Below, piece by piece: positions 1-7,773 of a stretch of 64,000 bases of DNA (positions within the stretch are counted from its first letter, which is position 1; the number at the start of each line of letters is the position of its first letter). Source of the stretch: a virus (Duplodnaviria; Heunggongvirae; Uroviricota; Caudoviricetes); the IMG/VR virus record IMGVR_UViG_3300015214_000024, positions 297,787-361,786 of that record; one strand, written 5' to 3'. A program made the translations under genes and the position numbers. A model generated the notes under the pieces. The model was not told where the DNA came from and searched no databases. It worked only from the letters and a program-made list of their open reading frames with translations.

Positions 1-351
1 AGGTATTTTCGTAACTTTGTCAATAATGTCGTCAAAATCATCAGTCATATGCCAATTGAGATCTTCACTAAATTCATCCCATTTGATATTACGCTGTTTT
101 GCTTCTTCCTTATAAGCATCTAAATAGTCCAAGTCAATCCACCTGTAGCGGAGTTCACCTTCATAAGTTTCGCTGATTGAAATTTCATATATTTGCTGTG
201 TTTGAGTATCAAAAACTGCGCTAATATGAAAATTATCATCTGAACTATCAAGGAATCGTGCATTTGGACCAAAACATTTCCAAAGGAATTCACTTCCGTC
301 AGTAATTTTGAAATCAATTGCTTTTGTGAAAGCTTCCATTTGTTTTGACAT
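1..351 (-). CDS. hypothetical phage protein, partial (runs off window)
   Basis: ATG at 351-349 overlaps the TAA of the upstream ORF (TAATG); open frame MSKQMEAFTKAIDFKITDGSEFLWKCFGPNARF... to position 1. Confidence 0.75.
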   Translation of the reverse strand, partial: MSKQMEAFTKAIDFKITDGSEFLWKCFGPNARFLDSSDDNFHISAVFDTQTQQIYEISISETYEGELRYRWIDLDYLDAYKEEAKQRNIKWDEFSEDLNWHMTDDFDDIIDKVTKIP

Positions 352-554
352 TAGATTGCCTCCAAACAATGCTCAGTGATTGAAACAGCCTTCCAGCCAT
401 CGCCATATCCATTGTTATATGGCGTATCCAGTTCTACGATGAACACTGTCATACCAGGAGCGTCAAATGCCACTCCGATTGTGGAACCTTTAATACCATC
501 CATGTCACCGCCAGTACGAACAAGCTTAACACGCTGATTAGGTGAGAATTTCAT
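351..554 (-). CDS. hypothetical protein
   Basis: 67-aa ORF with AAGGA SD, coupled to the next gene. Confidence 0.7.
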   Translation of the reverse strand: MKFSPNQRVKLVRTGGDMDGIKGSTIGVAFDAPGMTVFIVELDTPYNNGYGDGWKAVSITEHCLEAI

Positions 555-577
555 TTTCAGTCCTTTCGATTATGTTG

Positions 578-661
578 CGGAGTAGTGGGGATTCGAACCC
601 CATACCTTGCGGTACCCTCTGTTTTCGAGGCAGTGTTAGAACCTATCTAATTACGTACTCC
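578..661 (-). tRNA. tRNA-Ser(CGA), non-canonical 8/4 fold, possibly degenerate
   Basis: acceptor GGAGTA(C)GT/ACTACTCC (8 bp plus bulge), D-stem TTAGA/TCTAA, loop CTCGAAA, long V-arm, T-arm GGGG-TTCGAAT-CCCC; anticodon stem has two mismatches; CCA not encoded. Confidence 0.7.
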
Positions 662-892
662 AAAATTGTCAACCAGTTTTACTAATTCTTTTTCAGCCAA
701 ATACATTTCAACTTTAGTATTGTAAAACCTTAATATTTCTTTATTAAAATTATCAATTCCATATTTTTCAATAGCATATCTTATTCTTTTACCAGAACCC
801 ATATAACCATCATCGAGATTTTTAGTCGAATGGGCACCAATGTAAAACTTACCATTTATTTGGTTTGTTATTTTATAAACATAGTAAAACAT
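647..892 (-). pseudogene. truncated GIY-YIG (Seg-like) homing endonuclease
   Basis: YVYKITN...FYIGAH...DDGYMGSG catalytic domain only (81 aa); frame ends inside the tRNA-Ser(CGA) gene. Confidence 0.7.
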
Positions 893-930
893 ATTTTCAA
901 ATCCGGCGCGCTTGTCCGGTCAATCTTCCA

Positions 931-1122
931 TTAGTGTGAATATCTACATTCACTTATGCTATCACATTCAAATCCTGGAGCACCACAAATTGAACAGTCA
1001 AGCTTGGTTTGTCTAAACCATTCCTTTTTGCCGTTATGTGGATTGATTTCACAATAAAGTTCATTAATCCTGCCTGGTGACTTGAATGATCCAAACAACC
1101 AACTTAGCACTTTACCAAACAT
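931..1122 (-). CDS. small Cys-rich hypothetical protein
   Basis: 63 aa, strong AAGGAG SD, CxxC motif. Confidence 0.65.
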   Translation of the reverse strand: MFGKVLSWLFGSFKSPGRINELYCEINPHNGKKEWFRQTKLDCSICGAPGFECDSISECRYSH

Positions 1123-1171
1123 AGCATCTCCTTTCCTTTCTGTCTATAAAGGAAGAAATGAAATATGTCAA

Positions 1172-1263
1172 TGGCGGACAGTGAGGGATTTGAACCCTCG
1201 GAACCCCTTACGAGGTTCGGCACATTAGCAGTGTGCTGGTTTTAGCCACTCACCCAACTGTCC
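1172..1263 (-). tRNA. tRNA-Ser(GCT), canonical 7/5
   Basis: GGACAGT/ACTGTCC acceptor, GCACA-CTGCTAA-TGTGC anticodon arm, long V-arm, encoded GCCA. Confidence 0.95.
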
Positions 1264-1271
1264 ATAAAATT

Positions 1272-1361
1272 TGGAGGAAGACGGGATAATCGAAATCCAC
1301 ACCATATTTCAGGTGCCCACTCCTTAGCAGGGAGGTCCAGAACCTTTCTGGTTCATCTTCC
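1272..1361 (-). tRNA. tRNA-Ser(GCT), non-canonical 8/4 fold
   Basis: acceptor GGAAGATG/CGTCTTCC (8 bp), D-stem CCAGA/TCTGG, loop CTGCTAA, T-stem GGAT/ATCC (4 bp), TCCA end. Confidence 0.88.
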
Positions 1362-1366
1362 ATATA

Positions 1367-1487
1367 TACAACAAAGACAGGATTCGAACCTACGTGGTCC
1401 CAGGGCGTCAAATTAATTTGTCCGGATCCTAAGACCATCCCGCTTCTGGGCGGGCTACCTTAAACCTATCTCAGCCACTTCATTGTA
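1367..1487 (-). ncRNA. tRNA-like RNA with ~45-nt variable arm and 6-nt anticodon loop
   Basis: 10-bp terminal stem TACAATGAAG/CTTTGTTGTA, D-like arm, CCCGC-CCAGAA-GCGGG, TGGTCTTAGG...CCTGGGACCA hairpin, GTAGG-TTCGAAT-CCTGT. Confidence 0.65.
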
Positions 1488-1488
1488 T

Positions 1489-1579
1489 TGGAGGAGCCGT
1501 GGGTACTCGAAACCCATACCGTTTTTTAGGTATCAACCGCTTTCCAGGCGGTGGTTGCGCCCTGGCAACTAACGACTCC
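1489..1579 (-). tRNA. tRNA-Ser(GGA), non-canonical 8/4 fold
   Basis: acceptor GGAGTCGT/ACGGCTCC (8 bp), D-stem GTTGC/GCAAC, ACCGC-CTGGAAA-GCGGT, T-stem GGGT/ACCC, TCCA end. Confidence 0.88.
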
Positions 1580-1585
1580 GCAAAT

Positions 1586-2257
1586 TTAAACTACTGTTCT
1601 TCCTTTATACCATCCTATTGGAATTACCATATCCTTTTTAATTTTCTGGTTTTTAGATCCGTCAGTAATCCACATAGTTCCGAATTGTGAATTTTTCCTT
1701 CCAGTTTGGAAGCCATCATTTTTTTCTTTCCATTTTTTAATAGCACTATCAGATTTAGATAATTTACTAAATTCTTTAGCTTTTTCTGGATTCAAGCTAT
1801 GGAATTCTTTCATAGCTTCAGAACCTTTAACCCATCCTTTACATTCCACAAACCGCAATCTTGCTTTTTCAAGTATCCATTCATAACCTGGTTTACCAAA
1901 TGGTGAAATAAATTTATTCCATTCTGCCTTAGTTTCAAATCCTCGATCTTTGTAATAAGAGCCTTCTAAGTTGTATATTGTAAAGCCACCAGTTCCGCCA
2001 AGCATTAAATTATAAGTATTGTTATCTTTTACAAAATCTTCGTTAACTATTTCACGTTCTTTATTATTCATATCATTTTCATTATCAAAAATATATAATG
2101 TTTCTTTATCAAAGTTTTTTATTCCATATTTTTCTATAGCAGATTTTATTAATTTTCCTGAACCCATATAGCCATCATCTAAATCATCAGTAATATGCTT
2201 GCCAATATAGATCTTACCATTTAGTTTGTTTGTTATTTTGTAAATTATATTAAACAT
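1586..2257 (-). CDS. GIY-YIG (SegB-like) homing endonuclease
   Basis: IIYKITN...IYIGKH...DDGYMGSG...YNL; C-terminal GTMWITDG...GWYKGR DNA-binding motif; start reset to 2257 because the longer ORF overlaps a tRNA. Confidence 0.85.
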   Translation of the reverse strand: MFNIIYKITNKLNGKIYIGKHITDDLDDGYMGSGKLIKSAIEKYGIKNFDKETLYIFDNENDMNNKEREIVNEDFVKDNNTYNLMLGGTGGFTIYNLEGSYYKDRGFETKAEWNKFISPFGKPGYEWILEKARLRFVECKGWVKGSEAMKEFHSLNPEKAKEFSKLSKSDSAIKKWKEKNDGFQTGRKNSQFGTMWITDGSKNQKIKKDMVIPIGWYKGRTVV

Positions 2258-2277
2258 AAAAATCCATTCAATTTTTG

Positions 2278-2364
2278 AGGACAGTGTGGGATTCGAACCC
2301 ACGGGACCCTCGCAGGTCCTCCGGTTTTCAAGACCAGTGCAATCGGCCACTCTGCCAACTGTCC
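2278..2364 (-). tRNA. tRNA-Ser(TGA), canonical 7/5
   Basis: GGACAGT/ACTGTCC, CTGGT-CTTGAAA-ACCGG, long V-arm, GTGGG-TTCGAAT-CCCAC; CCA not encoded. Confidence 0.93.
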
Positions 2365-2372
2365 ATATATTT

Positions 2373-2461
2373 TGGCGGAGGGTAGGCGGAATCGAACCCC
2401 TGACCTTACGGTTCCACTAGTTTTCAAAACTAGGTGTGCATCCCCGGCACAATTACTCTCC
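2373..2461 (-). tRNA. tRNA-Ser(TGA), non-canonical 8/4 fold
   Basis: acceptor GGAGAGTA/TACCCTCC (one A-C mismatch), D-stem TGTGC/GCACA, CTAGT-TTTGAAA-ACTAG, bulged 4-bp T-stem, GCCA end. Confidence 0.8.
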
Positions 2462-2462
2462 A

Positions 2463-2490
2463 ATAAAAAACCCCCTAGTTTCCTAGGGGG
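2463..2490 (-). terminator. intrinsic terminator of the serine attenuator
   Basis: CCCCCTAG-GAAA-CTAGGGGG followed by TTTTTTATT, immediately before the first tRNA-Ser. Confidence 0.9.
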
Positions 2491-2524
2491 TGTAACAGCA
2501 AACCTATCATTCAATAGATACTGT

Positions 2525-2572
2525 TCACCCCATTGGGATGGACGAACTACTGGATGATGAAATAATGAACAT
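2525..2572 (-). CDS. attenuator leader peptide MFIISSSSSSSIPMG
   Basis: ATG TTC ATT ATT TCA TCA TCC AGT AGT TCG TCC ATC CCA ATG GGG TGA; CAGGAAAG SD upstream. Confidence 0.85.
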   Translation of the reverse strand: MFIISSSSSSSIPMG

Positions 2573-2607
2573 TCGTTTAATCTTTCCTGTTTGCTTTAAC
2601 TTTGTTC

Positions 2608-2636
2608 AGCTTATATTCTATTTAGTATTCTGTCAA
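2608..2636 (-). promoter_or_regulatory. sigma70-type promoter for the leader/tRNA-Ser operon
   Basis: TTGACA-17 nt-TAAGCT; a CTAAATA late-type motif lies within the spacer. Confidence 0.7.
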
Positions 2637-2665
2637 TAGTAAAATAATAAAAATTCTGATTTATT

Positions 2666-3304
2666 TTATGACCAATATTCATATAAACCAGACTGCATAG
2701 TATCCAGATATTCATCCCGGACACCGAAAAACTTAGCCAAATATCTTACCAACAAAGGTGTTGGAGGGGCGAATCGATCGATCAAATCCTCTTTGGAAAA
2801 ATCAATTATATCACCATTTTCCATTGTGATTGATTGCTTAACGTCACGAAACAGCCTAATTGCTTCTGATTTAACCTTTTGTCCATTTGGTATGTATGTC
2901 ATTTTACCGTGCTCATATGGATAAATCCCATATGGAATATATTTGAATGACGGTTCCATACCATAATCATTATTCAAAACTGAATTATAGTAATCCATTG
3001 AATCATTATATCGGTGCCAATCAGGCATACCAATATGGGTAAAAAGCATTATATTAGATAAGCCAGTTTCAGTTTGGTAACTCACAAACTGACTCATATA
3101 TGCTGATAAATTTTGTTTGTGCCCATCGCGCCAATAAAGTCTCATTTCAATATCTGAATCATCTTCAATCAGACGCAGAAAGGTATTAAAGTCAGAAATT
3201 TGGGTTTCAAGAGCATATTCGTACTGGTCCCAATCAACTCTCGGGTCGCGATCCACGATATTATGAAAACCGTAACCTAATACTTTATGAATCTTAAAGC
3301 CCAC
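2666..3304 (-). CDS. hypothetical protein
   Basis: 212-aa ORF, no recognised motif. Confidence 0.75.
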   Translation of the reverse strand: MGFKIHKVLGYGFHNIVDRDPRVDWDQYEYALETQISDFNTFLRLIEDDSDIEMRLYWRDGHKQNLSAYMSQFVSYQTETGLSNIMLFTHIGMPDWHRYNDSMDYYNSVLNNDYGMEPSFKYIPYGIYPYEHGKMTYIPNGQKVKSEAIRLFRDVKQSITMENGDIIDFSKEDLIDRFAPPTPLLVRYLAKFFGVRDEYLDTMQSGLYEYWS

Positions 3305-3353
3305 AAACTTCCCCCATTTTCTTATCCTCTAATAGCAGCTTTGTATTTTAATG

Positions 3354-4598
3354 TCAAAGGATAATTCGATCTGGAAAATATGGTTGAAGTATTTCAGGTA
3401 TTGCCACCCAGCCATCTGGCTGTTGATAATTTTCCAAAATAGCTACAAGAGTCCGACCAACAGCCAATCCGCTACCATTTAATGTATGGACCAAAGTAGT
3501 CTTTTTATCTCCTGGCAGCTTTACTCGTGCGGCCATACGTCGGGCCTGAAAATCGCCACAATTGCTGATCGAGCTAATTTCACGCCAAGCCTTTTGGCCC
3601 GGAAGCCAAACTTCCAAATCGTAAGTTTTTCTGGCGCCAAATCCCATATCACCCGCTGCTAATAAAACTCGCCTAAATGGTAAATCAAGTTTCTTAAGAA
3701 TCATTTCCGCAGCATTCAGCATATGCTGATGTTCATATCCGCTTTGGTCTGGAGTAGAAATGGTTACCATTTCTACTTTATGGAATTGATGTTGGCGTAT
3801 GAGCCCGTGAGTGTCTCTACCAGCACTGCCTGCTTCGGCCCTAAAGCACGGTGTTAGTCCAACCATACGCAATGGTAAATCACCATAATCCAAAATTTGA
3901 TTGGCAACCAAATTTGTCATTGGCACTTCGCCAGTTGGGATCAAATATCGACCATCTACGGTTTTAAACAAGTCCTCTTCAAATTTTGGAAGCTGACCGG
4001 TACCAAACATCGTTTGCTGATTCACCAAATAAGGAACATCTACTTCAGTAAAACCATATTCCTCAACGTGATGGTCAATCATAAACTGACCAATCACTCG
4101 GTGCAATTTAGCCAATGTGCCAGTCATCACATTAAAGCGAGTCCCTGCGATTTTTGTTGCTTGTTCAAAGTTAAATCCTGGAAGAAGGTGATGCTCTTTG
4201 ATTTCAAAATCAAATTCAGGAATGTCATCCTGATGTACTACAAGATTATTTTCCTCACCACCTTCTGGAACATCGTAGTGTGGAATATTTGGTACCTTAG
4301 CCCAAATGCTATCACGAACATCTTTCAACAAATCAACATTTTTCTTATAATGATCAATTTGCTCATTAGTTGCTTTTGCTTGTTCTTTCAGATCTTCAGC
4401 AGGTAATTTAAGCCTGTATGCATCACCAATTGCTTTATTAAGGTTGTTTCGTTCATTTTCAGCAGCTTGCAACTTTGTTGTATAAAGACGAAATTGCTCA
4501 TCAGCCCAAAACAAATCGTCAATTGCTCCTCCGCCGCGCCCCTTTAATGCACGTTTTACGGCTTCGCGATCAGTTCTGACATCATCAATATTAATCAT
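3354..4598 (-). CDS. serS: seryl-tRNA synthetase
   Basis: N-terminal coiled coil; LIPTGEVP, FRAEAG (motif 2), HQFHKVE, REISSISNC, HTLNGSGLAVGRTL (motif 3). Confidence 0.98.
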   Translation of the reverse strand: MINIDDVRTDREAVKRALKGRGGGAIDDLFWADEQFRLYTTKLQAAENERNNLNKAIGDAYRLKLPAEDLKEQAKATNEQIDHYKKNVDLLKDVRDSIWAKVPNIPHYDVPEGGEENNLVVHQDDIPEFDFEIKEHHLLPGFNFEQATKIAGTRFNVMTGTLAKLHRVIGQFMIDHHVEEYGFTEVDVPYLVNQQTMFGTGQLPKFEEDLFKTVDGRYLIPTGEVPMTNLVANQILDYGDLPLRMVGLTPCFRAEAGSAGRDTHGLIRQHQFHKVEMVTISTPDQSGYEHQHMLNAAEMILKKLDLPFRRVLLAAGDMGFGARKTYDLEVWLPGQKAWREISSISNCGDFQARRMAARVKLPGDKKTTLVHTLNGSGLAVGRTLVAILENYQQPDGWVAIPEILQPYFPDRIIL

Positions 4599-5244
4599 TC
4601 CAAAAATCCTTCATTCCACCGTTCATATACGACTTGGCTGTAATAATTTTTCCCGTTCTTTCATCCCAAGCCTGATTATCCTGAAAACGAATTGTGCGAA
4701 TTTTATCACCACGCTGGCCAGAGCCACTTTCCTTATACTGTTCAGTCTTTAGACTAGAAAGAACAGCATTATCCATTGATTGTAACTTATTTGCTAGGGC
4801 CTGTCGAGCCTCTTGGTAATTAGATTCTCTAGAACGGCTTTGGCGTACTTCCACCAAACCTGTTGGAATATGGATCAATCTGCAGGAACATTGGTGCTTA
4901 TTTCGGTGTTGGCCGCCTTTACCTGTCCCAGAAAACCATTCTACCCGTAAATCGCTATCGCGTATTTCAGTTTTTTCCATTTTGGCGTCAATTAAAGCGA
5001 CCTTTACTGACGAAGTATGGACTCTGCCCCTGCGCTCAGTTGGAGGTACACGCTGGAAACGATGGCCGCCAACTTCTTTCTTAAGATTGTCGTTTGGTTT
5101 TTTTAGCTCAATAAAATAGCCTTGACCCTCTGGGCCGTGGCGGTGCAGTCAGCCATCAAGAGCTTTGAGGTATGAGTGATACAAATCTTTCGCTAATAAT
5201 TGAGCGTCTTTTCCGCCTTCACCAGGCATAATAACTAATTTCAT
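4591..5244 (-). CDS. RF1-like class I peptide chain release factor lacking domain 1, with in-frame UGA at codon 32 (5151-5149)
   Basis: single frame MKLVIMPGEGGKDAQLLAKDL...DG*LHRH...EVGGHRFQRVPPTERRGRVHTS...GKGGQHRNK...RGDKIRT; AAGGA SD; the ORF track catches only 4591..4980. Confidence 0.85.
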
Positions 5245-5374
5245 ATTTTTATTCCTTTTTAAAACAATAGAGTATTATCGTGTGAAATGTTAAATCACAA
5301 CGTCAATTTTCTTTAAGTTCTAAAAAAGAGTAAAACACATTAATCAGTCCTTTTTGATTTCTACCAATATTTAG

Positions 5375-5815
5375 TCAATTCTGTTCCCAGTTTTTTAAAA
5401 TATCTGAACTTGAATTTGCTTTGTTTTCACCACCAACACCAAAAACTAACTGAACATCATACCGGAGAGCAGTTTCTGATTCTGGAATATTATCTTTAGT
5501 CCTATCGCCCCCATTCATAAATAAAATTTCATCACGTGGAAACATAGTTCGTGCCTTAACAATTGCCCAATCAGCAGATCCAGTAAGATCATCCTGTTCA
5601 GTCATCGGAACAACTAAATTAACACTTCGCATATTGCTTAAAATAGCACATCGAGTGGCCTGTGTCATAAATGGCTTGCCTTTCTTTCGAGTGAGCCAAG
5701 CATCAGAATTCGGAAACACTAACAGTATATCGCACATAGCTTTTGCAGCATTAATGTAGTCAATGTGACCTTCGTGTAAAGGATCAAAGCCACCAGTTAC
5801 TATGCCAATTTTCAT
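5375..5815 (-). CDS. HIGH-motif cytidylyl/adenylyltransferase family protein
   Basis: TGGFDPLHEGH, NSDAWLTRKKG, NGGDR, SSS motifs. Confidence 0.9.
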   Translation of the reverse strand: MKIGIVTGGFDPLHEGHIDYINAAKAMCDILLVFPNSDAWLTRKKGKPFMTQATRCAILSNMRSVNLVVPMTEQDDLTGSADWAIVKARTMFPRDEILFMNGGDRTKDNIPESETALRYDVQLVFGVGGENKANSSSDILKNWEQN

Positions 5816-5933
5816 TTGTTATTCCTCTAAAAATTTCTTCAACCTTAACAGGTTTTTACTAATTTGTCAAATCATATTAACAGCTATTGACGAGCAAGTC
5901 ATTATATTATATAAGATCATCATAACTTAGGAG

Positions 5934-6605
5934 ATGTTTATGACGGCTTGGCGATCAATTCGAAACGAAATTGAAGAAATGGATGCTACATTCGTTCTAG
6001 CCATTTCGGGCGGTGTTGATAGTATGGTCCTGTTGGATTTCTTCACGCGAACTGACGCTAATTTCGTTGTAGCACATTTTAACCACAATTTGCAACCTAT
6101 CAATGTAGAAATGCAAAAGCACGTTATTGATTATTGTATTAAGAACAATATCGAACATTACGTCGGCCAGGGGGTGAGTATTAAACTCAATTCTAAGCTT
6201 AATCATACATCAATTGAGGCTGAGGCACGTAAACAACGATATGATTTTCTTGAAGCTGTTGCTAAATCAGTCTCTAACGGTCGCCAGGCGGTTATTGTAA
6301 CTGGCCATCACCAAGATGATCAAGTCGAAACTGTTATGCTTAACTTATTCCGTGGCGTCGGGCTTCAGTCAGTGTTTATGGAAAAGAATAATGGTAGGCA
6401 ATATAGACCATTTTTAGACATTCCAAAATCGGAATTGTTAGAATGTGCTAGAAAGCGTGGCCTTGCTTGGATTGACGATCCAACCAATGCTGAAAACGAT
6501 GCAGAACGTAACTGGCTCCGCAACGAAATTATTCCACAAATTATGGAACGTAGAAACATCAGTAAAACGATTCCACTTTCTATTGAGAAATACCTCAAGA
6601 GTTGA
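5934..6605 (+). CDS. tilS: tRNA(Ile)-lysidine synthetase, catalytic domain only
   Basis: AISGGVDS PP-loop, HFNH, EAEARKQRY, GHHQDDQVET, RPFL, DPTN, RNWLR. Confidence 0.92.
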   Translation: MFMTAWRSIRNEIEEMDATFVLAISGGVDSMVLLDFFTRTDANFVVAHFNHNLQPINVEMQKHVIDYCIKNNIEHYVGQGVSIKLNSKLNHTSIEAEARKQRYDFLEAVAKSVSNGRQAVIVTGHHQDDQVETVMLNLFRGVGLQSVFMEKNNGRQYRPFLDIPKSELLECARKRGLAWIDDPTNAENDAERNWLRNEIIPQIMERRNISKTIPLSIEKYLKS

Positions 6606-6636
6606 CTTGTCCTGTTTCTTCTGCTAAGATGGATCT

Positions 6637-7773
6637 ATGAAAAACAAATTCAATCCTGATATGGACCTGATCCGAATTGCATTCGAGAATGCCAACGTTC
6701 CTGTGCGACTAGTTGGCGGCTGTGTCCGGGATATGCTGTTGGGCATTAATCCTAAGGATTGGGATATGACCACGCCGGCATTGCCTGATGATATTATCAG
6801 CATCTTGAGAGCAGCTAATATCGAATGCTTTGATATGAGCAACGGTCACGGCACTATTACTGCGGTGATTAACAGTGAGCCTTATGAAATCACTACATTA
6901 CGGCAGGATTTGGAAACTGATGGCCGTCACGCGGTTGTGGGTTTTACTGATGATTGGAAAGTTGACGCTGAACGTCGAGATTTCACGTTTAACGCAATGA
7001 GTATGGATTTTGACGGAGTCATTTATGACTACTTTGGTGGTATTGCTGATCTAAAAGCTGGCCTGGTACGTTTTGTTGGTGATGCTGAAAAGCGCATCCA
7101 AGAAGACTATTTGCGTATTCTGCGTTATTTTAGGTTTTTGGGCCGAATGCCCAAGCCAGAAGCAGACGTAGAAACACTGGCTATTATTTCAGCAAATCGC
7201 CAAGGACTGGCTAATATTTCTGGCGAACGTATTTGGTCTGAAATGAAGAAAATCTTCTCTGGTGAACACGTTGATTTCATTATGGATTTGATGGATCATT
7301 CAAAAATCACCGGTGCTATTGATTTGATGATTAATAAGCCGGCGGTTCCAGCATCTAGGGATCCAGTGACAATTTTGGCAGCGTATATTGATTTTGCGTT
7401 CGTTGAAATTGTGTGCGATCGTTGGAAGCTGTCCAGTAAAGAAGAAAGCCAGTTGGTGTATTTGACCAATTTTCGAAACATAATTGACGATGTCAAGGTA
7501 CTGAAAGAAGCTATTTTTGAAGGTACTGATCGTTATTATGTTTTGGAGTTGATGAAAATTCAACATCGAAAAGACGATTACGAGATTTTGAAAAATTGGA
7601 TCATTCCAACTTTTCCAGTATCTGGTAAGGATTTGATCGAAATTGGTGTAAAGCCAGGCCCAAATATGGGCTTCATCATTAAAGTATTGCGTAAATCATT
7701 TGTAGAATCAAACTATCAAATGACTAAAGAACAATTTCTTTCAATGGTTGATATAGATAAAAGCCCGGAGTAA
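6637..7773 (+). CDS. cca: class II tRNA nucleotidyltransferase (CCA-adding enzyme)
   Basis: VGGCVRD, DWD, RRDFTFNAM, EDYLRILRYFRF; DGRHAVV flexible loop. Confidence 0.9.
   Translation: MKNKFNPDMDLIRIAFENANVPVRLVGGCVRDMLLGINPKDWDMTTPALPDDIISILRAANIECFDMSNGHGTITAVINSEPYEITTLRQDLETDGRHAVVGFTDDWKVDAERRDFTFNAMSMDFDGVIYDYFGGIADLKAGLVRFVGDAEKRIQEDYLRILRYFRFLGRMPKPEADVETLAIISANRQGLANISGERIWSEMKKIFSGEHVDFIMDLMDHSKITGAIDLMINKPAVPASRDPVTILAAYIDFAFVEIVCDRWKLSSKEESQLVYLTNFRNIIDDVKVLKEAIFEGTDRYYVLELMKIQHRKDDYEILKNWIIPTFPVSGKDLIEIGVKPGPNMGFIIKVLRKSFVESNYQMTKEQFLSMVDIDKSPE

Follow-up and report, generated by a model that had tools for sequence, protein, structure and literature searches.

A predicted serine-codon attenuator ahead of the tRNA-Ser genes of a large phage genome

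The DNA analysed here, called the window in what follows, covers 64,000 nt of a virus record that is 455,147 bases long (IMG/VR IMGVR_UViG_3300015214_000024, Caudoviricetes); coordinates preceded by G000 refer to the whole record. The genome carries about 70–80 tRNA genes, as called by ARAGORN, and its aminoacyl-tRNA synthetase genes include serS, thrS, ileS, leuS and lysS. All its confidently called tRNA-Ser genes lie in one block on the minus strand of the window (2461–577), and the main tRNA arrays have none. The block starts with two tRNA-Ser(UGA) genes (2373..2461, with imperfect stems, and 2277..2364, of the canonical 7/5 type), followed by tRNA-Ser(GGA) at 1489..1579, which fits the 8/4 and 7/5 folds equally well, two tRNA-Ser(GCU) genes (1272..1361, for which 8/4 is the best fit, and 1172..1263, canonical 7/5) and tRNA-Ser(CGA) at 577..661, called by ARAGORN. 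The six genes claimed in an earlier note, written from the letters alone, are thus borne out, although ARAGORN finds four at its default setting, five at -ps90 and six at -ps80. The 8/4-fold type of tRNA-Ser has been described for alphaproteobacterial phages (PMC5389517). The seryl-tRNA synthetase gene serS (3354..4598, minus strand; TIGR00414, 452 bits, cutoff 302) lies upstream, and between it and the first tRNA-Ser gene there is a short serine-rich leader that, as argued below, very probably belongs to a ribosome-mediated transcription attenuator tying the synthesis of the tRNA-Ser block to the speed at which Ser codons are decoded. Since serS is upstream of this switch, it is not gated by it. 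For comparison, relatives were reached through 15 related phage SerRS proteins (64–89% identity) and their syntenic contigs; 8 distinct relatives show the tRNA-Ser block, which gives nine leaders with the present phage. Contigs from four DNA sequencing runs also held related phages, and they were not counted as independent support.

The promoter, the ribosome-binding site (RBS), the leader, the antiterminator and the terminator, all on the minus strand, were found at the positions given in the earlier note. The putative sigma-70-type promoter (2608..2636) consists of TTGACA (2636–2631), a 17-nt spacer and TAAGCT (2613–2608), and contains a TAAATA motif (2624–2619). A simple promoter scan did not list it, and its support is conservation: TTGACA and TAAATA are invariant in 8 aligned sequences, and the same TTGACA/TAAATA layout precedes the leaders of the three other tRNA blocks of the genome described below. 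TAAATA is found upstream of open reading frames (ORFs) 88 times genome-wide, against 10.6 expected; T4 gp55 had no tblastn match in the genome, so that the motif is not assignable to a late sigma factor. The RBS CAGGAAAG (2582..2589), whose AGGA is retained in the aligned relatives, is followed by a leader ORF of 15 codons (2525..2572) with seven consecutive Ser codons at 2560–2540, in the order UCA UCA UCC AGU AGU UCG UCC. No other short ORF of the 455-kb genome combined at least five identical residues in a row with a terminator behind them, in a scan that sought single-residue runs and that mixed-codon leaders therefore escaped. The proposal that the Ser codons sample all four isoacceptor classes holds in this window but not beyond it, as the leaders of the relatives use UCA, UCU/UCC and AGY, and UCG, unique to this window, is absent in 8/8 relatives.

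Three mutually overlapping RNA elements are predicted. In segment 1, the anti-antiterminator (2535..2558), AUCAU, CAGUAG and CAUCCC pair with 2531–2526 and 2517–2506, forming a conserved 1:2 helix of −16.0 kcal/mol in which 94.4% of the alignment cells are paired (8 sequences). The 1:2 hairpin suggested previously (GUUC..CCAU with AUGG..GAAC) could form at −5.5 kcal/mol, but it is not the conserved one. The antiterminator (2:3; 2487..2531) is made by GGGGUGAACAG and CUGUU-A-CACCCC, which enclose an inner helix, and it overlaps the 5′ arm of the terminator; the folding energy of the region is −23 kcal/mol (z −3.96; z −4.3 for the full leader RNA), and 93.1% of its alignment cells are paired. 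The predicted intrinsic terminator (2465..2491) has a 9-bp stem (2491–2470), a GAAA loop and a U6 tract that reaches 2465 and ends three bases before the first tRNA-Ser gene. When the terminator was kept fixed and the upstream segment was shuffled, 4/1000 sequences sequestered the terminator 5′ arm as strongly. In the relatives the terminator stems, perfect by construction because they were selected by requiring pairing, differ in sequence and length around an invariant CCC core, which also pairs with the leader Gly codon. No Rfam leader family matched at E ≤ 1, and no T-box, which is defined by a Stem I with specifier loop and a T-box antiterminator motif, was matched in window 1–6000; the leader is too short for one and is an ORF. 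As modelled, the element combines instead the features of a leader-peptide attenuator, namely a short translatable ORF, cognate codons, a terminator and an antiterminator that excludes it.

To follow the behaviour of these elements, the RNA was folded with the ribosome at each position in turn, hiding it through +13 from the P site, and the cost of freeing the terminator 5′ arm while the 3′ arm had yet to emerge was computed. With the A site on Ser codons it amounted to 8–12 kcal/mol. By position, this cost was 7–8 kcal/mol with the ribosome at codons 2–8 and about 12 at Ser9–Ser11, fell to 5 at codon 12 and was about 1 kcal/mol from codon 13 to the stop, compared with 3.5 kcal/mol with no ribosome. 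Footprints from +10 to +16 left the shape of the profile unchanged, +10 and +16 moving the drop by one codon, and the leaders of the relatives gave the same profile. The E. coli controls behaved alike with the same method, with a drop from 13 to 0.3 kcal/mol for thrL and from 7 to 0.6–2 kcal/mol for hisL. Thus, the his/thr-type geometry put forward earlier is matched by the folding profile, with the drop just after the last Ser codon, and the antiterminator is predicted to hold while the ribosome is at or before this codon and to collapse just after it.

The element is conserved together with its tRNA genes. Promoter, RBS, leader and terminator stand ahead of the tRNA-Ser block in 8/8 relatives showing it, in agreement with the expectation that relatives keeping the array would keep the leader. 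RBS, ATG, frame and stop are retained in all nine phages, and the number of Ser codons is exactly seven in 9/9 leaders, although their third positions vary and the last one is TCC in 3 leaders and AGC or AGT in 6, the TCC/AGC switch being two base changes that preserve Ser. Moreover, 4 leaders carry a 3-base insertion that keeps the frame, one has TAA instead of TGA as the stop, and the codons flanking the Ser run vary freely. Synonymous changes with a constant number of Ser codons in a kept frame indicate, at the level of sequence comparison, that selection acts on the translated Ser run. The genes upstream of the Ser leader differ between relatives and, in the two phages with the closest SerRS, serS-thrS is followed by a His/Tyr/Glu block with a His/Tyr/Glu-rich leader; the leader therefore moves with the tRNA block through rearrangements, and belongs to it rather than to serS.

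Several points weigh against an attenuator. With the full terminator present, the terminator fold is favoured at every ribosome position (−31.2 vs −29.9 kcal/mol), a full-length equilibrium state that was computed for the phage leader and not for the E. coli controls. At the stop codon a cost of 4–5 kcal/mol persists in three relatives (L009, L012 and L015), owing to a weak competing hairpin. Of the covarying hairpins that the earlier note asked for, the pairing is kept in relatives, but the covariation amounts to one two-sided change in the antiterminator (A-U to U-A), matched in 75/500 shuffles and thus without significance by itself, and to none in the 1:2 helix. In addition, leader codons 2–4 (Phe, Ile, Ile) are also inside the sensing window, and the relatives are kin, not independent samples. 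Since the terminator fold is preferred at equilibrium, only a kinetic switch could operate, and its kinetic step would follow the classical attenuator model. The same equilibrium preference, and the phage-type TAAATA motif within the promoter, would suit a fixed terminator or processing hairpin that either sets a constant low read-through or is bypassed through late transcription or an antitermination factor of the phage, and beside which the ORF would be incidental. This we consider the least probable of the explanations, and very improbable in itself: RBS, start, frame, Ser count, stop and the overlap of two exclusive helices are all conserved, the switch point lies immediately past the final Ser codon, and TAAATA, being upstream of the leader, offers no bypass of it.

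A further line of evidence comes from the other tRNA blocks. The genome contains four leader/antiterminator/terminator units, two found in addition to the Ser unit by a terminator-first scan and one by inspection: these three precede a His/Tyr/Glu block (G000 180103; L016:4104), a Leu/Asn/Pro block with leuS inside and a 12-amino-acid block (G000 191195 and G000 209726, respectively). All four have an RBS of the AGGA type, and in each the end of the leader is G-rich and pairs with the terminator arm. When codons were counted in the sensing window taken from the folding profile, those matching the leader's own block were 7/11 for Ser, 9/14 for His/Tyr/Glu, 15/20 for Leu/Asn/Pro and 27/27 for the 12-amino-acid block, in whose leader all 12 amino acids are present and two non-matching Glu codons lie past the switch point. 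The binomial p of these matches ranges from 2e-7 to 2e-5 (1.6e-5 for the Ser leader), and cross-matches between leaders and other blocks do not exceed expectation, the one exception being the His/Tyr/Glu leader, which has two Ser codons. Together the four units cover 19 amino acids, and each tRNA set is probably made mainly when ribosomes read its codons slowly. No leader was found before tRNA-Cys, lone Ala, Arg, Met and Leu tRNAs, serS, lysS or gluS. BLAST also led to LR756502.1, an unrelated phage of 642 kb in GenBank, which likewise has four codon-matched leader/terminator units (L108; 22931, 25421, 38949 and 39657), for Phe/His/Trp/Lys, Arg/Ser, Glu/Tyr and Ile/Gly/Ala blocks, with leaders that are without Shine-Dalgarno motifs; a Ser/Arg-rich leader precedes Arg-Ser-Ser-Ser-Arg tRNAs there. 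These matches also bear on a codon-blind reading, in which any slowing of the leader ribosome (antibiotic, shut-off or slow initiation) would open the terminator and the Ser run would be kept mainly for pairing. In fact, UCAUCAUC and AGUAG double as segment 1, which partly explains their invariance, and a stall anywhere at codons 2–11 preserves the antiterminator. However, Ser is retained where unpaired or re-paired positions have changed, the TCC/AGC switch included, and pairing alone is insufficient to account for four leaders here and four in LR756502.1 that match their own blocks, so that we regard this explanation as improbable.

Switch-pattern scans of IMG/VR, JGI metagenomes and GTDB genomes gave no matches, and SerRS-based scans gave mostly distant cellular loci, 80 of which (886 kb) held 7 short poly-Ser ORFs that we take for chance. 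The best named cellular relatives of the phage SerRS are Sphingomonadales enzymes (52–56% identity), which makes an alphaproteobacterial host likely. Neither a multi-subunit RNA polymerase nor tubulin was found in the 455-kb genome; transcription by the host polymerase in the cytoplasm is therefore the simplest assumption, and nothing hints at translation being uncoupled by a phage nucleus.

Given this anatomy, its conservation, the codon match and the predicted alternative structures, the attenuator would be translated, coupled to transcription and triggered as follows. Host RNA polymerase would start near 2600 and a ribosome would translate the leader. If the Ser codons were read fast, the ribosome would arrive at codons 12–16 and cover GGGGUG, the terminator would form and transcription would stop near 2465. 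If they were read slowly, the ribosome would cover segment 1 only, GGGGUGAACAG would capture the terminator 5′ arm ahead of the emergence of the 3′ arm, and the polymerase would read on into the six tRNA-Ser genes. On an untranslated leader the 1:2 helix would form, so that transcription would terminate by default. With tRNA as its output, the circuit would act as negative feedback on the supply of functional tRNA-Ser, which any cause could trip, such as tRNA cleavage, 3′-end blocking, uncharging or a small or decaying host pool. As extra tRNA cannot cure a lack of serine, the useful signal would be a shortage of functional tRNA-Ser.

What the switch was selected for is a separate question. 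The earlier note saw in it a tripwire for host defences that target tRNA-Ser. Such defences would be one possible trigger, and the same switch might have been selected specifically against defences or toxins destroying or blocking tRNA-Ser: Ser alone has a single-amino-acid unit, with six genes in two structural types and serS adjoining, a retron of type I-A depletes every one of the four serine tRNAs of E. coli (PMC12475279), and the tRNA-Tyr rescue from retron-Eco7 depends on promoter strength, so that dose matters (PMC11555353). On the other hand, the T5 tRNA-Ser was also cleaved and gave no phage rescue (PMC12475279), and 19 amino acids are covered by matched leaders in this genome, which points to a general feedback on tRNA supply with defence as one trigger. 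Thus, we hold the specific tripwire to be a doubtful though real possibility, whereas attenuation as supply feedback on tRNA genes is the most likely function. Somewhat better than even, in our judgement, are the chances of a broader view, in which jumbo phages would survey decoding capacity through block-coded leaders, and related leaders at some synthetases, and selectively replace missing tRNAs, including those destroyed by immunity, serine having its own alarm line and unusual tRNA-Ser.

The Ile codons of the leader raise another possibility, a bivalent Ser/Ile sensor that would also gate the downstream ileS-lysS. There are 1–4 Ile codons in 9/9 leaders, ileS follows downstream on the same strand in this phage as in relatives, and a scan between the switch and ileS gave no strong terminator or consensus promoter. 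Nevertheless, this sensor appears unlikely, as the Ile positions vary, with Phe, Leu, Arg, Thr and Asn substitutions, and a separate Ile-rich leader precedes ileS, both in four relatives and in the present phage. This leader lies at G000 ~297634–297530 on the minus strand, 150 bases left of the window, and is present in L005, L006, L009 and L012 and absent in L013, L015 and L021; its 5′ part pairs with the ileS RBS, at a cost of 9–15 kcal/mol when free and of 2–6 with a ribosome on the leader. Upstream of thrS a conserved Thr/Arg leader of 6–8 codons is accompanied by long hairpins and by no intrinsic terminator (L016 ~2750–2850, in G000 upstream of thrS at 178848; L003, L004, L009, L013, L015, L110 and L111), and its computed switch is opposite in direction to the simple logic in which stalling opens the RBS.

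The attenuator resembles those of amino-acid operons (E. coli hisL, thrL, trpL, leuL and pheL, and S. meliloti trpL-trpE(G)) in its short leader of cognate codons, in the 1:2, 2:3 and 3:4 helices with a U-tailed terminator and, for thrL and hisL, in the switch profile. It differs from them in that, as predicted, it controls tRNA genes and not enzymes, is in a phage, senses Ser and has functional tRNA shortage, rather than the amino acid, as its logical signal. Thus, with tRNAs as its first genes, it stands outside the classical class, which has biosynthetic, transport or synthetase targets and described leader families. In the E. coli pheM-pheST attenuator and in T-boxes, synthetase expression answers the level of charged tRNA, T-boxes binding uncharged tRNA directly, without a ribosome. 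The phage unit would similarly tie the expression of decoding machinery to charged-tRNA level, but the targets of those systems are synthetases, whereas the phage serS is upstream and ungated. Ribosome-mediated attenuation works in alphaproteobacteria, as reported for S. meliloti trpE(G) (PMC6614838). The nearest functional parallel is the Anabaena trn operon, a silent tRNA array induced under translational stress and repressed by TrcR (PMC8421152, PMC10272220), which differs in being plasmid-borne and in relying on a protein repressor at initiation, without codon specificity; the 2021 paper on it makes no mention of attenuation or of a leader. Phage tRNAs can offset tRNA-targeting defences, and their amount matters, and the available portions of these reports describe promoter-driven supply or cleavage-resistant variants and no sensing switch (PMC11555353, PMC11464382, PMC10264068). 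Slow reading of Ser codons is a signal for B. subtilis sinR too, where it is reported to act on the translation of a protein gene, without leader or terminator (PMC3862929). In agreement with the earlier note, no attenuator on tRNA genes or at a phage tRNA locus was found in the open-access literature, subscription journals being largely uncovered; the type of mechanism is classical, and the target and the viral setting are without precedent in that literature.

It has long been an open question why phages carry tRNAs, with codon compensation, replacement of a decaying host pool and evasion of tRNA-targeting defence as the ideas in play. A switch driven by decoding speed would make phage tRNAs a conditional supply and would extend attenuation to tRNA genes, serine and viruses. 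The leader would be a ready reporter of which tRNA runs short in infection, a switch locked on or off could separate these ideas, and, in work on retrons and toxins directed at tRNA-Ser, the unit could serve as a compact sensor of this tRNA.

Other features of the region were also observed. Within the Ser block, a conserved tRNA-like RNA (1369–1484, minus strand) has a long acceptor helix, a long variable arm and an intact T arm, while its anticodon arm varies freely among relatives; it may be a structural RNA or a decoy and take no part in decoding. Two GIY-YIG/SegE-like ORFs are inserted in the block, at 1586–2257 and 647–892 (minus strand), the second following the apparent 5′ half of another tRNA-Ser(UGA) at ~930–894. 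Beside serS lies a truncated release-factor gene (4591–5244, minus strand) whose best match is RF1 (PRK00591, E 5e-39, read through); an in-frame TGA at its codon 32, in the context GGY TGA CTR, is present in 12/12 start-matched loci, and looks like programmed UGA readthrough that would tie the factor to RF2 activity. Next to these, genes of the PP-loop (TilS-like) and CCA-adding/poly(A) polymerase families (5934–7773, plus strand) make up a tRNA maturation cluster that is syntenic in relatives. Elsewhere in the genome, two tRNA genes (G000 15281 and 165512) are possible amber suppressors, as their anticodons are CUA, and the tRNA at G000 183179 has a CUUA loop of 8 bases.
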